Positions 7,260 to 12,233 of a stretch of DNA of 64,000 nt are shown here, one piece after another. Each line of letters opens with the position of its first letter. Position 1 is the stretch's first letter. Origin of the DNA: Rhabdothermincola salaria (GTDB lineage: Bacteria > Actinomycetota > Acidimicrobiia > Acidimicrobiales > Acidimicrobilacustridaceae); assembly GCF_021246445.1 (NCBI RefSeq), contig NZ_JAJQXW010000001.1, positions 1,816,168 to 1,880,167 on the forward strand, given 5' to 3'. The position numbers were made by a program, and so were the translations under genes. The notes below the pieces were generated by a model. The model was not told where the DNA came from. It saw only the letters and a list, made by a program, of their open reading frames with translations, and did no database searches.

Positions 7260-7754
7260 TCAGGCGAACGTGACGCTGGCCAGCACGGCGTTGACCTCGC
7301 GCACCAGCACGTTGCGGAGCCGGTGGCTGCCGATCACCACGTAGAGGCAGAAGGGCCGTCCCTCGGCGACGAAGAAGCGCTGGAGGCCGGCCTGGCCGGC
7401 GATGCCGCGCTGGAGGGTGTCGGGCGAGAAGTCGTCGCCGGCGAACGGCCACGGGATGGCCTGGCCGGCGAAGAGGGCCGTGGCCGCCTCCTCGACCGGG
7501 TGCTCGAGCAGCGAGATGAAGATCGCGCCCGACTCCATGAGCTCGACGGCACCGCCGCCGAAGTCGCCCCGCACCGGCGGCAGCCCGAAGTTGGCCACGT
7601 GGGCGATGGGCGGCACCGACTCGGCTCCGCCGAACGGGGCCAGCGTCTCCGGTGCCCGGGGGTCGGGCAGCGGGTCCGGGTCGCGGCGGTAGATCTGGGC
7701 GTCCCACCCGTTGGGTGGGGCGACGGTGAGGCCGTGGGCGGACAACGTCGGCAT
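7260..7754 (-). CDS. Hypothetical protein (164 aa) downstream of the mau-like cluster
   Basis: Protein-like frame MPTLSAHGL..GRPFCLYVVIGS; CAGACT -10-like hexamer 8 nt before ATG. Confidence 0.75.
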   Translation of the reverse strand: MPTLSAHGLTVAPPNGWDAQIYRRDPDPLPDPRAPETLAPFGGAESVPPIAHVANFGLPPVRGDFGGGAVELMESGAIFISLLEHPVEEAATALFAGQAIPWPFAGDDFSPDTLQRGIAGQAGLQRFFVAEGRPFCLYVVIGSHRLRNVLVREVNAVLASVTFA

Positions 7755-7861
7755 GATCCGCCAGTCTGCCACCGAACGACCCGCCGGCGGGAGGCGGCGC
7801 CGGGGTCCGACGCCGACGCCGGCTGCGCGGGGAGGGGCCGCCCGCGTCGTCTCGGCCGGCC

Positions 7862-8545
7862 TCAGGCCAGGGTGACGGTGGCTCCGACCGCCACCACCAC
7901 GACGGCGAGGTCGCCGACCACGGTGGCCACCCGGGCCCACGAGGCCCGGGCCTGGAGGCGGCGGTGGAAGACCACGAGGGCGTCGGGGTCGTGCACCCCC
8001 CGGGCGGCCAGGATCGCCAGGCCGCGCACCAGACCGAAGGTCAGCCCGATCAGGCCCCCCAGCAGCCACGAACCCGACAGCAGGCAGGTCACGAAGACCA
8101 CGTAGACGAGCCCAGCGGTGACGATGGTGGTGAGTCCGGCACCGAGCTGGAGGCCGAACCCGCCGCCGTAGACCCAGCCCCGGTAGGAGGTCATCCAGTC
8201 CTCGTTGACCTGCCGGCCGTAGCGGGGCAGGGGCAGCCGACCCCCGGAGGCGTCGGCCGCGAGCGCACCGAGCGCCACCACGCCCACGACGACGGCGACG
8301 GCCACCTCTCCGATCCAGGCCACCAGCGGGGTGCCCACCAGGCCCAGGAGCGCGCCGAGCAGGGCGCCGCCGAGCGCCGACCCGAGGATGTGGGCGGTGA
8401 CGGTCAACCACCACCGTTGGGCTCGTCCCCGCTCACCGAGCGGAGTGATGCTCGAGAGCATCGACTCCCCTCAGGGCGACCACGTGGAGCGGATGGCCCC
8501 GATGACGGCCGAGACCAGGCCGACGACGACCAGGGCGACGGGCAC
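7862..8545 (-). CDS. MauF-like (DsbD/CcdA-type) membrane protein, predicted selenoprotein with in-frame TGA at 8471-8473
   Basis: GTG 3 nt after upstream TAG gives MPVALVVVGLVSAVIGAIRSTWSP-(TGA)-GESMLSSITPLGE; MauF motif is STWSPCG; ORF track shows only 7862-8461. Confidence 0.8.
8427..8468 (-). promoter_or_regulatory. Candidate bacterial SECIS hairpins 3' of the in-frame UGA
   Basis: CUCCGCUC[GGU]GAGCGGGG with loop 33 nt after UGA; also GGAGU-C-GAUGCU[CUCG]AGCAUC-ACUCC immediately after UGA. Confidence 0.55.
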
Positions 8546-8548
8546 GGC

Positions 8549-9442
8549 CTACGGCAAGGGCGCGTCGCGGGCGTCGGGCCCGGCGGCGGCGTCGTCGTCG
8601 TCTCCGTCGGCGGGATCGTCGTCGGCGATCAGCTGGCTGGGATAGAGGCTGGGGTGGCCGGGGCCGATGCCGGCGGCGCGCAGGTCGCGGTCGGCCCGGG
8701 CGGTGCGCTCCGGGCCGGTGAGGCGGCCGGCGGGGGCCGAGCGGTGCAGCGACGAGCCGTCCACGTCGTGGCCGGCGTCGGCCGCGGCCTGACCCAGGAG
8801 GTTGGCCACCTGGGCCCAGGTGGCCGCCGCCCCTTCGCCGAGCACGGCTCCCGAGGGGCCGTCGACGAGGATGAAGTAGGGGTTGGCCGGCACGCCGTAC
8901 TCGTCGTACGCCGCACTCGACATGAGGGTGGTGACCCCCGTCGGGGCCAGGCCGGCCACCGCGCTCACGCTCTCGGCCTCGGGACCCTTGGTGACGACCA
9001 CCAGGCGGGTGTCGCGCCCGGGCAGTCGGGTGCCCTCGCCGTCGGCGAAGGCCTGCCAGAAGTCGGCGCAGGTGCCACAGCCGCTCGACAGGAACGCCAA
9101 CAAGGTGGTGTGGTCGGTGCCGACCACCCCCGCCACCGTGGCCGCCCCGTCGGGGGTGACGCCGGCGATGTCGTGGGCGTCGGTGCTCACCACGCCGGTC
9201 TGCGATCGCGGCTCGGGCACCCCGGGTCGGGTGCGGATCTCGACCGGAGAGCGCACCCCTCCCGTGGTGGACCCGGTGCCCGACGGGTCGGTGGGGTCGG
9301 CGCCGTCGGCACTCTCGTCGTAGATGCCGGCCCCGAGCTCGTGGAGGCGGCGCAGGATCTCGGCGTGGCTGCGCAGCAGCCCGACGACGAGCACCGCGAG
9401 GAGGGCCACCACGAGGGCCAACAGCACCACGACGACGGTCAC
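8549..9442 (-). CDS. MauD-like membrane-anchored thioredoxin-fold protein
   Basis: N-terminal TM, LLAFLSSGCGTC (CxxC), YGVPANPYFILVDG cis-Pro region; GTGA overlap with upstream stop. Confidence 0.82.
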   Translation of the reverse strand: MTVVVVLLALVVALLAVLVVGLLRSHAEILRRLHELGAGIYDESADGADPTDPSGTGSTTGGVRSPVEIRTRPGVPEPRSQTGVVSTDAHDIAGVTPDGAATVAGVVGTDHTTLLAFLSSGCGTCADFWQAFADGEGTRLPGRDTRLVVVTKGPEAESVSAVAGLAPTGVTTLMSSAAYDEYGVPANPYFILVDGPSGAVLGEGAAATWAQVANLLGQAAADAGHDVDGSSLHRSAPAGRLTGPERTARADRDLRAAGIGPGHPSLYPSQLIADDDPADGDDDDAAAGPDARDAPLP

Positions 9443-11595
9443 GAGACCCTCACCGAGCGGCAGGCCAGGAGCACGTTGTCGCCCCGGCCGCGGTTGATCA
9501 GGTACACGCAGACCGTCCGGGACCCGCGAGACGCCCCGACCGTGACGTCGAAGCCGTGTGACGGCCCGTACAGGGGATGGGCGGCGCCGACGTCGCTGCG
9601 GTTCTTCGATGCCGTGGCGACTCCCGCGCCGACACCGTCGACGTACACGTGCACGTCGATCGGTCCCGCGGTGTCGGGGTCGATGGCCCAGCCCTGCAGC
9701 CGGATGGTGCCGGACCCCCCTCTTGCCACGTCGAGAGACCCGAACGGCGAGCCGCCCACCAACACCGATCGACATCCGATCAGGCTGTTCGAACCGGGGC
9801 CGAGGTTGATGCCGTAGGCGCACACCGTCCGGAGCCCGGAGGAGGCCGGCAGCTCGGCCGAGAAGCCCCGCGCCGACCCGTACCCCGGGTAGGCCGCAGC
9901 CACGTCGGAGCGCCGGCGATCGGCCCGCAGGACGTGGCCGACGCCGTCGACGTACACGTGCACGTCGACGGGGTCGGAGCTGTCGGGGTCGAGGAGCCAA
10001 CCGGCGACGGCGATCTTGCCCGGTCCGGCGCGCACGACGTCGAGGGCACCGAAGGGTGCCCCGGAGAGCACGTTGACGGGCCGCACGGCGATCAAGGCGT
10101 TGGGGCCGGGGCGATCGTTGATGGCGTAGGCGACCAGCTCGTGGCTGCCCGGTGGGGCCGGCACCACGACATCGAAACCGTGGTTGGTGGAAGGGCTGGT
10201 CGAGCTCAGCGCGGGTCGGGGATCGTCGGCGAGCACCGCCAGGCCCTTGCCGGCCACGTAGAGGTGGACCTGGATGGGATCGGTGGTGTCGGGATCGCGC
10301 GCCCAGCCCCGCACCCGCAACCCACCCGGAGCCGGATCGACGCGCTCGACCGTCCCGATCGGGGTTCCCACTTCGATCGTCCGCGACCCGAGCAGCACGT
10401 TGCCCGACCCGCCCCCGACGTTGATGGCGTAGACGTCGACCCGGTGACGCCCCTGCGGGACGTCGATCGTGACCCGGAAGCCGTGGTCGGCGCCCATGCC
10501 GAAGGCGACGTCGAGGTCCGCACGGCGCCGGTCGGCGCGCACCGCCACGCCCTTGCCGGCCACGTACACGTGCACGTCGATGGGGTTCGTGGTGTCGGGA
10601 TCGATCGCCCACCCCTCGACGGTGACCTTGCCCGTTCCGACGGTCACGTTGTCGATGACCCCGAAGGGGTTGCGGCTCACGACGGTGCGGCAACCGATGA
10701 TGCCGTCGGAACCCGGGCCGATGTTGACCGCGACGGCGCAGACCTGGCGCTGGCCGCCCTGGGAGCCGGGCAGGACGACATCGAACCCGTGGTTGGGGCC
10801 CATGCCCGGGTGGGCGGCGGCGATGTCGGACCGAGGGCGGTCGGCGCGCACCACGGCGACGACCTCGCTGTTCATGATGAGCCGGACGTCGACGGAGGCG
10901 TTGGTGTCCCAGTCGATGGCCCACCCCTTGACGCGGATGCCCCCCGAGACCTCGGTGGCGGAGTCGATCTGGCCGGTCACCCCGTGCAGGCAGGAGCGGT
11001 CGTGGGTGGCGGTGGCGTTGTCGACGCGGATGGTGCCGGTGCAGGTGCCGTCGATCTCCCACGGCGCGATGCACGTGACGAGCCGGCAGATGATCGGACC
11101 CACGCACGCCACACCCTGGTTGCACTGGCCGTAGCGGAAGTTGGTGCAGCCGGCCTTGCGGTTGTTGCAGTCGCCGTTGGCGCACCCGCACCCGGTGCCC
11201 GAGCAGGAACCGCTGCACACGCCGCTGCCGCCGCACCCGCAGCCGTTGCAGGGCGCGTTGCAGTCCATGTAGTAGCGGGGGCCGCTGCAGAACCCGGTGC
11301 CGTCGACCTTCCACCAACCGGCGAGCAGCGAACCCGGAGGGCACTGGTTGCGACCGGTGAGGGTGCAGCAGAACTCGGTGTAGCCGTCGCAGCACAACGA
11401 GCCGCACGCGCAGGCCTGCCCCTGGCACGAGCACACCGCGGCGTAGGCGTCGGTGGGGGTGAGGGCATAGGAGACGGGATTGGCGGCGATGGCCGAGCCG
11501 ACCACCGCGCTGCGGGCGAAGAAGCCGCGGCGGCCCATTCGGGCGGAGAGGGCGCCGGCGACCTTGTCGACCAGCGTCGTGGTGGCACGGCTCAT
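9439..11595 (-). CDS. Tat-exported Cys-rich MauA-like domain fused to five ~100-aa beta-rich surface repeats
   Basis: GRRGFF Tat motif and AYA cleavage site; 26 Cys in ~150 aa including CCDG, CPPG..GWW, YYMDC; 5x GWxxDxD..HVYV..RxD..HGF repeats. Confidence 0.8.
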   Translation of the reverse strand: MSRATTTLVDKVAGALSARMGRRGFFARSAVVGSAIAANPVSYALTPTDAYAAVCSCQGQACACGSLCCDGYTEFCCTLTGRNQCPPGSLLAGWWKVDGTGFCSGPRYYMDCNAPCNGCGCGGSGVCSGSCSGTGCGCANGDCNNRKAGCTNFRYGQCNQGVACVGPIICRLVTCIAPWEIDGTCTGTIRVDNATATHDRSCLHGVTGQIDSATEVSGGIRVKGWAIDWDTNASVDVRLIMNSEVVAVVRADRPRSDIAAAHPGMGPNHGFDVVLPGSQGGQRQVCAVAVNIGPGSDGIIGCRTVVSRNPFGVIDNVTVGTGKVTVEGWAIDPDTTNPIDVHVYVAGKGVAVRADRRRADLDVAFGMGADHGFRVTIDVPQGRHRVDVYAINVGGGSGNVLLGSRTIEVGTPIGTVERVDPAPGGLRVRGWARDPDTTDPIQVHLYVAGKGLAVLADDPRPALSSTSPSTNHGFDVVVPAPPGSHELVAYAINDRPGPNALIAVRPVNVLSGAPFGALDVVRAGPGKIAVAGWLLDPDSSDPVDVHVYVDGVGHVLRADRRRSDVAAAYPGYGSARGFSAELPASSGLRTVCAYGINLGPGSNSLIGCRSVLVGGSPFGSLDVARGGSGTIRLQGWAIDPDTAGPIDVHVYVDGVGAGVATASKNRSDVGAAHPLYGPSHGFDVTVGASRGSRTVCVYLINRGRGDNVLLACRSVRVS

Positions 11596-11605
11596 GACGG
11601 TCGGC

Positions 11606-12184
11606 TCATGTGAGGGGGGCCTCCACGGAGAAGGAGCGAACGGGTCGGCCGGTCCCGGCGGAGCCGGGGGTGCGGCGGGCGGCGACGAGCGCCTCGGGCA
11701 GGGCGGTGAGCAGGGCGACCCCGAGGCCCACGGCGACGAACGACACCGACAGGTAGGCGACGCCGGCGGCGGGCAGGTCGGGGCGCATCTCGATGAAGCC
11801 CGGCGCCCCGGTGACCGCGGCGGAGACGGCGACGAGGGCGGCCGCCCCGTCGACGACGGCGTGCACCAGGGTGGGCGGGGCCGACGAGGCCCCGAAGCAG
11901 CCACAGGAGACGGCCGCCTCGCCCGCGGCACGCAGGCGCAGCACCGAGCCGGTGAAGACCACGAACAGCACCGCGGTGGCGGCCGCCAGCCACGGGCCGC
12001 CGAACAGGTAGGTGGCGACCCCGATGGCCACCTCGGCGGCGCCGAGGAGCCGGGCCAGGGCGGGTCGGGCGGGCAGGCGCAGGGCCTCGAGCATGGGCAC
12101 GGTGGCGGCCGGGGCGCGCAGCTTGGCCATCCCTCCCACGGCGAGAACGCCGGCCACGACCCCCAAGAGGCCTCCGAGCACCAC
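11606..12184 (-). CDS. mauE: MauE/DoxX-family redox membrane protein
   Basis: GMAKL, AAE, CGCFG motif, several TM helices; TACCAT -10 8 nt before GTG 12184 (alternative start 12220). Confidence 0.88.
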   Translation of the reverse strand: MVLGGLLGVVAGVLAVGGMAKLRAPAATVPMLEALRLPARPALARLLGAAEVAIGVATYLFGGPWLAAATAVLFVVFTGSVLRLRAAGEAAVSCGCFGASSAPPTLVHAVVDGAAALVAVSAAVTGAPGFIEMRPDLPAAGVAYLSVSFVAVGLGVALLTALPEALVAARRTPGSAGTGRPVRSFSVEAPLT

Positions 12185-12233
12185 GTCGGCCGATGGTAGT
12201 GCCGGTCGCCCGCAGTTCACCCGAGGGGGCGGG

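Follow-up and report, generated by a model that had tools for sequence, protein, structure and literature searches.

Within a stretch of 64,000 nucleotides (nt) from Rhabdothermincola salaria (NCBI RefSeq assembly GCF_021246445.1, contig NZ_JAJQXW010000001.1, positions 1,816,168 to 1,880,167; hereafter the window, meaning this whole stretch of DNA), a gene on the minus strand at 7862..8545 contains an in-frame TGA that is a candidate selenocysteine (Sec, U) codon. The reading frame extends from a GTG at 8545-8543 to a TGA stop at 7864-7862 and is open but for its sole internal TGA, which is codon 25 (8473-8471, minus strand) and lies in the context RSTWSP-TGA-GESMLS. The recoded translation, in which this TGA is read as U, has 227 residues and begins VPVALVVVGLVSAVIGAIRSTWSP-U-GESMLSSITPLGERG..., and the peptide across codon 25 is STWSP-U-GESMLSSITPLGER. 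The conventional open reading frame of the gene, from an ATG at 8461, encodes 199 aa. All 24 codons preceding the TGA have G or C at the third position, and the TAG of the upstream gene (8551-8549) is separated from the GTG at 8545 by a gap of 3 nt. An earlier sequence-only reading had proposed the gene, and its coordinates, sequence and single-TGA frame from GTG 8545 to 7862 were reproduced exactly on re-translation. The features of the gene and its predicted RNA are as follows:

7862..8545, minus strand: coding sequence (227 codons and a stop) of a polytopic membrane protein that putatively contains Sec; homologs are full-length over the span
8471..8473, minus strand: in-frame TGA, predicted to be read as Sec and aligned with the family's only invariant cysteine
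8447..8462, minus strand: hairpin 1, resembling a selenocysteine insertion sequence (SECIS), GAUGCU-N4-AGCAUC, starting 8 nt past the UGA
8428..8444, minus strand: SECIS-like hairpin 2, CCGCUC-GGN-GAGCGG, from RNAalifold, with compensatory changes among Sec forms

An assembly error at 8473-8471 is unlikely, because metagenome contigs that cover 8471-8473, drawn from three DNA runs and an RNA-library run, have the TGA letters unchanged. These contigs are short pieces from relatives, and none of the sequencing runs screened contains half of the 64-kb stretch.

Relatives of the protein are numerous: 2382 proteins were found at E <= 0.001 among the 8000 candidates scored, and most of the 120 listed were 192-207 aa long. 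Four fetched relatives of 198-201 aa start with MLSSI[TH]PLGE, i.e., at the Met following the TGA, and all ten longer relatives fetched (223-291 aa) contain RSTWSPCG or RATWSPCG near the N-terminus. NCBI and the Joint Genome Institute (JGI) enter the relatives at truncated length, under the names 'hypothetical', 'sulfite exporter TauE/SafE family' or 'MFS permease', and many public entries of the family probably lack the first 28 residues. The codon 25 column was read in 110 gene copies, comprising 51 TGA copies, here called Sec forms (the copy in the window and 50 loci, which give 49 distinct 48-mers), and 59 copies with TGC or TGT, here called Cys forms. TGG occurred at this column in none of the 110 copies, and no other stops or frame breaks were seen in the TGA copies. 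An order-wide stop-tolerant search matched 45 of 151 genomes, with exactly one TGA in 29 of the 38 strong rows and none in the other 9. TGA was present in 25 of 30 order-level loci, the window's own included, the other 5 having TGC or TGT; 80 named genome loci, the best 80 of 529 stretches encoding a relative, had TGA in 26, TGC in 44 and TGT in 10. Close homologs therefore do not have TGC or TGT throughout; according to the sequence-only reading, TGC or TGT in all of them would have pointed to an isolated nonsense mutation or a sequencing error.

The titles of TGA-form records include Acidimicrobiia, Solirubrobacterales and Nitriliruptorales. In a distant subfamily with 30-35% identity, RSLWSP-TGA-GLS was found in 4/4 genomes read; these loci (L140-L143; genomes G058, G033, G053 and G025) have the divergent sequence RSLWSP-TGA-GLSV.ETV.PSV. 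A class-wide search matched 87 of 301 genomes, and the main-family rows had one TGA in 46 cases and none in 38, a count that tallies TGA codons per row irrespective of their position. No sampled genome smaller than 2.2 Mb gave a match in this search. Unpublished genomes contributed one TGA locus (L047, genome G143) and one row with none (G378).

When the window protein was aligned with 29 full-length Cys forms, residue 25 was the sole invariant cysteine. The other invariant residues are R19, T21, W22, S23, P24, G26, S28, M29, L30, T34, P35, E38 and R41; R111-Q-V-N-E115, W117, W124-V-Y126, G129-F-G131, Q133, G135, G137 and T140; and F170-G171, H194 and R196. Thus, the 24 codons upstream of the TGA, which the sequence-only reading had regarded as a genuine extension of the gene, are conserved, five of their residues (R19, T21, W22, S23 and P24) being invariant.

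The RNA that follows the UGA differs between the two forms. The 40-nt segment that begins with the UGA of the window gene folds with an energy of -22.4 kcal/mol (z -3.93), and 0 of 200 shuffles were as good. The six-pair stem of hairpin 1 is fully paired in 50/51 Sec forms (5/6 in the remaining one) vs 4/59 Cys forms. Codon +3 is TCG in 50/51 Sec forms and 38/59 Cys forms, and codon +7 is AGC in 51/51 and 6/59, respectively. The four-base loop of hairpin 1 has 15 different sequences, and synonymous positions of its stem are fixed only in Sec forms. Across both hairpins, 99.2% of the alignment cells are paired in Sec forms, a value reached by 0/500 shuffles, vs 64.9% in Cys forms, a value reached by 408/500. 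The Sec alignment contains 14 cells changed on both sides, and slid-pairing controls were 34-52% paired. Among the pairs of hairpin 2, pair 36:52 is CG in 36, UA in 8 and UG in 5 sequences; pair 40:48 is CG in 45 and UA in 4; and pair 39:49 is GC in 48, CG in 1 and UA in 1. The mean fold energy over 48 nt is -20.2 kcal/mol for Sec forms vs -14.8 kcal/mol for Cys forms, with a G+C of 0.67 in both. These data suggest that the hairpin pair after the UGA is a SECIS-like structure specific to TGA forms and a candidate SelB site. Three Cys-form loci deep in the Cys clade (L085, L111 and L114) retain an intact hairpin-1 sequence, GATGCT-N4-AGCATC, which may have arisen by chance through Ser-AGC codon use or may be a relic.

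The genome (3.9 Mb, 7 contigs, 71.8% G+C) encodes the machinery for Sec use. As the sequence-only reading had suggested, this machinery was searched for, and selA, selB, selD and tRNA-Sec were all found: selA at 402.8 bits and the adjoining selB at 260.2 bits, both above their cut-offs; selD at 364.8 bits, also above its cut-off, about 30 kb from the Sec gene and without an internal stop; and tRNA-Sec at 70.6 bits, for which ARAGORN agrees (tRNA-SeC, anticodon TCA). A genome scan for TGA codons with high third-position G+C on both flanks in the same frame gave 166 candidates. A UGSC-family gene, which lies outside the window, has a TGA at the U of D-U-G-S-C (NF041046, 155.9 bits vs a cut-off of 125) and is a positive control for Sec use in this genome:

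G000:C1:1335348-1335878 (locus L138:1349-1879), outside the window: UGSC-family selenoprotein gene, NF041046

The hairpin after the TGA of this UGSC gene has an energy of -17.6 kcal/mol and is unexceptional against shuffles (z -1.44). A second TGA candidate, at G000:C1:767876, matches no family and appears non-coding. A Sec-type formate dehydrogenase was not found in the genome (best match 88.4 bits, without stops). Because a Sec formate dehydrogenase is missing and SelD contains no Sec, the Sec gene and the UGSC-family gene, the sole selenoprotein genes found in the genome, may keep the Sec machinery in place.

Across genomes, the TGA form accompanies this machinery. A selA match was found in 102/151 genomes of the order, and it was present in 28/29 TGA-form genomes vs 1/9 Cys-form genomes, a tally that includes the unpublished genomes G065, G042 and G143. 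The TGA-form genome without a selA match (G069) is 92% complete and has a tRNA-Sec and a normal Sec-form gene with hairpin. The one Cys-form genome with selA (G145) also has tRNA-Sec, and three other Cys-form genomes checked had no tRNA-Sec at E <= 1e-8. Two Cys-form genomes with no selA match (G148 and G066) contain a match to the selB model at about 200 bits, below its cut-off; the next-best GTPase of the genome that contains the window reaches about 100 bits against the same model. A maximum-likelihood tree was built from 112 distinct rows, 55 of them Sec and 57 Cys, after masking of the Sec/Cys column. Every Cys row falls into a single clade (ultrafast bootstrap 100, Shimodaira-Hasegawa-like approximate likelihood ratio test 98) that groups with one Sec pair (96/92), and a single label change suffices in 100% of 200 bootstrap trees, in a bootstrap that had not fully settled. 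Under midpoint rooting, the distant Sec subfamily branches first. The position of the Cys clade inside the Sec forms, the single label change and the early-branching Sec subfamily suggest that Sec is ancestral in the family and that Cys arose once, a conclusion that depends on root and sample.

Taken together, the TGA/Cys column, the SECIS-like structure confined to TGA forms and the link to selA support the sequence-only proposal that the UGA is decoded as Sec, and TGA 8473-8471 is very probably a selenocysteine codon. Several points weigh against this reading, for which the comparative evidence is strong, or lessen the force of the counts. Hairpin 1 is invariant and hence gives no covariation, and its conservation could be in part an amino-acid constraint, yet Cys forms encode the same residues by other codons. 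In 3/51 Sec forms the hairpin 1 loop is CUCC and has no loop G, a base reportedly required by a bacterial SECIS model. An Rfam scan of 7800-8700 at E <= 10 gave no SECIS family. Because Cys was part of one of the two search patterns, the named set is biased to Cys forms; kinship among the genomes and the overlap of the two locus sets, from which 3 identical rows were dropped, mean that the counts overstate independence.

The Sec gene lies in a conserved cassette of five genes on one strand, in the order MauE-like gene, Cys-rich gene, thioredoxin-like gene, Sec gene and a gene for a 164-aa protein. The four partners are:

11606..12220, minus strand: MauE-like membrane protein with the motif S-C-G-C-F-G; PF07291 at E 2.4e-13, 50.9 bits vs a cut-off of 27
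9439..11595, minus strand: Cys-rich protein, presumably the substrate on which the cassette acts; it has C-terminal repeats and a twin-arginine-like signal, RRGFFARSAVVG
8549..9442, minus strand: membrane-anchored thioredoxin-like protein with CGTC (CxxC), from its translation; the CxxC is invariant and the conservation pattern is thioredoxin-like
7260..7754, minus strand: 164-aa protein, fifth member of the cassette, directly downstream of the Sec gene in 49/50 Sec loci

Linkage within the cassette is close. In 49 of 50 Sec loci, the Sec gene is immediately flanked by the thioredoxin-like gene upstream and the 164-aa gene downstream, the exception (L034) having none of the four partner genes. 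In the Cys loci, the Cys-rich gene is directly upstream in 36/59, and the thioredoxin-like and 164-aa genes are within the locus, in another order, in 35/59; overall, 35-38 of 59 keep the cassette genes in a changed order. In the window, the thioredoxin-like gene starts at a GTG that shares bases with the TGA ending the Cys-rich gene (GTGA, 9439-9442); this overlap and the 3-nt spacing before the Sec gene are consistent with translational coupling along an operon. A search for fused forms gave 5 matches, and the two examined were run-on gene calls, not real fusions.

Of the partner proteins, the thioredoxin-like protein scores 16.6 bits against the MauD model TIGR02661, under the cut-off of 188.6. 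The Cys-rich protein has many invariant Cys and the invariant motifs CPPG..AGWW and FRYGQC (GWW), and its C-terminal repeats, of which there are several, contain GWAIDPDT...DVHVYV. It had no Pfam or PDB sequence or profile match, and its AlphaFold2 (AF2) model was poor (predicted local distance difference test score, pLDDT, 54). The top Foldseek rows for this model include light chains of tryptophan tryptophylquinone amine dehydrogenases (2agy_H, 1mda_L and 3orv_C) at non-significant E values of 1.7-6, and a second fold search by VIA gave no row at Z >= 2; a MauA-like light-chain domain in the Cys-rich protein is a lead only, from a predicted model. A genome-wide search with the methylamine dehydrogenase (MADH) light-chain family PF02975, which did not extend to the heavy chain or MauG, gave no match above E 0.06, nor did the Cys-rich gene match this family. 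The gene for the 164-aa protein was always linked with those for the thioredoxin-like and Sec/Cys proteins. The 164-aa protein had no match in Pfam, NCBIfam or PDB sequences; in the ESM Atlas it is found in unnamed Actinomycetota clusters only, with weak, unreliable leads to DcrB/DUF3805-like families.

The Sec protein itself is all-helical in its AF2 model (pLDDT 90.1, predicted TM-score 0.88), with a helix break at P24-C25. Lys and Arg crowd the loops 19-44, 99-122 and 182-204 (means 3.8, 3.7 and 4.2) and are almost absent from the other loops, so that the positive-inside rule would place the Sec loop on the cytoplasmic side. The relation to DsbD and CcdA on which the sequence-only reading had drawn is weak: DsbD_2 (PF13386) matches the window protein at 16.1-16.2 bits (E 0.01), below the Pfam cut-off of 24.9, and the family has one invariant Cys instead of two. 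Some database relatives do have a precomputed PF13386 match. No NCBIfam family matched the window protein at E <= 0.1, a naturally Cys-containing homolog matched unnamed Actinomycetota clusters alone in the ESM Atlas, and tblastn of the Sec protein and of its MauE-like neighbor against plasmids, made in search of MauF, gave nothing. The Foldseek row to the nuclear magnetic resonance structure of CcdA (5vkv) was weak (prob 0.57, TM 0.36, E 0.34). The Sec protein resembles CcdA/DsbD in its small size, its several membrane helices, the Pro-Cys motif of its first helix and its adjoining thioredoxin-like gene; it differs in its one invariant Cys/Sec, in its subthreshold DsbD_2 score and in the predicted cytoplasmic location of the Sec loop.

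MauE proteins were reported to replace DsbB in E. coli via a CXC motif followed by F-G, in a preprint that treats MauD as the DsbA-like partner (bioRxiv 10.64898/2026.03.05.709764). The cassette is similar to this pathway and to the mau accessory genes (mauF, mauE and mauD) in that it brings together a MauE with CGC-FG, a CxxC thioredoxin-like protein, a membrane protein and a Cys-rich secreted protein; unlike mau clusters, it is in a genome with no MADH light-chain match, and its thioredoxin-like protein is far under the MauD cut-off. The cassette linkage and the reported MauE/MauD pathway suggest a thiol/selenol relay. According to the favored explanation, the hairpin pair beginning 8 nt past the UGA would recruit SelB with Sec-tRNA(Sec), and the ribosome would make a polytopic membrane protein of 227 residues in which the Sec of R-S-T-W-S-P-U-G ends the first transmembrane helix. 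This single Sec/Cys would bond transiently, as a selenosulfide or disulfide, to the CxxC of the adjoining thioredoxin-like protein, as part of a redox relay in the five-gene cassette with the MauE-like disulfide oxidase, which would mature the Cys-rich protein bearing the signal for twin-arginine translocation (Tat). What comparison shows is that the UGA and the RNA structure are conserved, that the TGA form goes with the Sec machinery and that the genes are linked; that Sec is inserted, which protein it binds and which way the electrons flow are what we infer from this. We assign the favored explanation a probability of about 0.85. That residue 25 takes part in a redox relay with the CxxC protein in the service of Cys-rich protein maturation is a more tentative proposal, to which we give slightly less than even chances.

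The functional part of this explanation has evidence against it as well. The family has a single invariant Cys/Sec, and the relay of CcdA/DsbD uses two conserved redox Cys, one per domain half. DsbD_2 was matched at E <= 0.01 by only 2 of 30 aligned members, Foldseek on the AF2 model gave nothing at E <= 0.001, and the wide VIA fold search returned generic helical matches and transporter halves (best Z 7.2). In 20 of 59 Cys loci, none of the four cassette genes is within reach.

The main rival to the redox relay accepts Sec decoding and takes the protein for a LysE/TauE-like transporter or a metal/metalloid permease, whose Sec/Cys would bind a metal, sulfur or selenium compound. The single invariant Cys, with no pair, and the Cys-form loci that stand without the cassette would suit such a role, as would the fact that transporter halves are the best fold rows; some members carry the JGI label 'sulfite exporter TauE/SafE' or 'MFS family permease', and permease-type selenoproteins are known, namely YeeE/YedE, the SO_0444 efflux transporter and MerT-like proteins (PMC13188914). 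However, no Pfam TauE family matched the window protein at E <= 0.1, the fold matches are within the range that the VIA search flags as generic, the gene sits between the CxxC thioredoxin-like and 164-aa genes in nearly all Sec loci, and its linkage to the MauE-like and Cys-rich genes outlasts a rearrangement. We regard the transporter role as unlikely. A bolder proposal, that Sec was ancestral and replaced once by Cys and that the cassette is an unrecognized selenium-dependent machine for thiol oxidation or cross-linking built around MauE, appears improbable as a whole. Under this proposal, the positive-inside rule would place both the Sec loop and the thioredoxin-like domain in the cytoplasm, and since the client has a twin-arginine signal, its disulfides or cross-links would possibly be formed before Tat export.

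Much less probable is that the TGA is a true stop, which would yield a 24-residue peptide and a separate 199-aa protein from ATG 8461. An ATG is indeed found 4 codons past the TGA, and the products called for most close relatives have 192-207 aa; yet the same Met is invariant in Cys forms, where it is internal, the 24 codons ahead of the TGA retain a transmembrane helix and the RSTWSP motif, and the 199-aa product would be without the only invariant Cys position. The TGA form also tracks selA (28/29 vs 1/9), and the RNA structure is specific to TGA forms. Readthrough by a standard tRNA (Trp or Cys), or a decaying pseudogene, with the Sec machinery uninvolved, is the least probable reading: no Rfam SECIS model was matched, as this reading would have it, but the TGA is kept in 51/110 copies and in the 30-35%-identity subfamily with no other stops or frame breaks, TGG is absent from the column, the TGA form accompanies selA and tRNA-Sec, and 8/9 Cys-form genomes have no selA match.

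With Sec decoding favored, the question is whether the family has been described. A 2026 review lists 119 prokaryotic selenoprotein families or subfamilies in its Table 1 (PMC13188914), and no family with the WSPUG motif, such an architecture or such a Pfam assignment is among the 119 listed, in agreement with the sequence-only view that this is not an established selenoprotein family. No DsbD, TauE or WSPUG entry came up in term searches across the papers and supplements of deep-Sep and BSepDB, with one BSepDB file covered in part, and a full-text search for literature linking a selenoprotein with DsbD, CcdA, MauE, TauE or Acidimicrobiia found nothing relevant. One point against novelty comes from Actinomarina, in which, according to a preprint, deep-Sep predicted a group in 49 genomes that matches K07090 and has no assigned function (bioRxiv 10.64898/2026.04.03.716425); this group may be the same family. 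Known selenoproteins provide partial parallels. The UGSC family (NF041046) likewise has an in-frame UGA where homologs have Cys, a hairpin directly after the UGA, dependence on selA, selB, selC and selD and truncated gene calls; unlike UGSC-type families, the present one is a polytopic membrane protein, with Sec in W-S-P-U-G rather than in CxxU or UxxC. TsoB (NF045694, rhodanese/DsbD fusion-like), YeeE/YedE, SO_0444 and MerT-like proteins are also selenoproteins with transmembrane domains (PMC13188914); they differ in their Sec motifs (UxxxxU, GUxSG and UxC) and domain layouts, and the window protein has no NCBIfam match. The most likely conclusion from these comparisons is that the gene represents a new, widespread and apparently undescribed Sec/Cys selenoprotein family of Actinomycetota.

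If this conclusion is true, a widespread selenoprotein family would be added to Actinomycetota, with matches in 87 of the 301 class genomes sampled and records from Solirubrobacterales and Nitriliruptorales. For annotation, the consequence is that database products begin 28 residues late, without the only invariant reactive residue. The family would also provide, for experimental use, naturally occurring Sec and Cys versions of a membrane redox protein. Selenium would, moreover, be tied to the recently proposed MauE disulfide-forming pathway, and should a Sec-dependent, MauE-centered machine prove real, the family would provide the first selenoprotein of a bacterial pathway for disulfide-bond formation.

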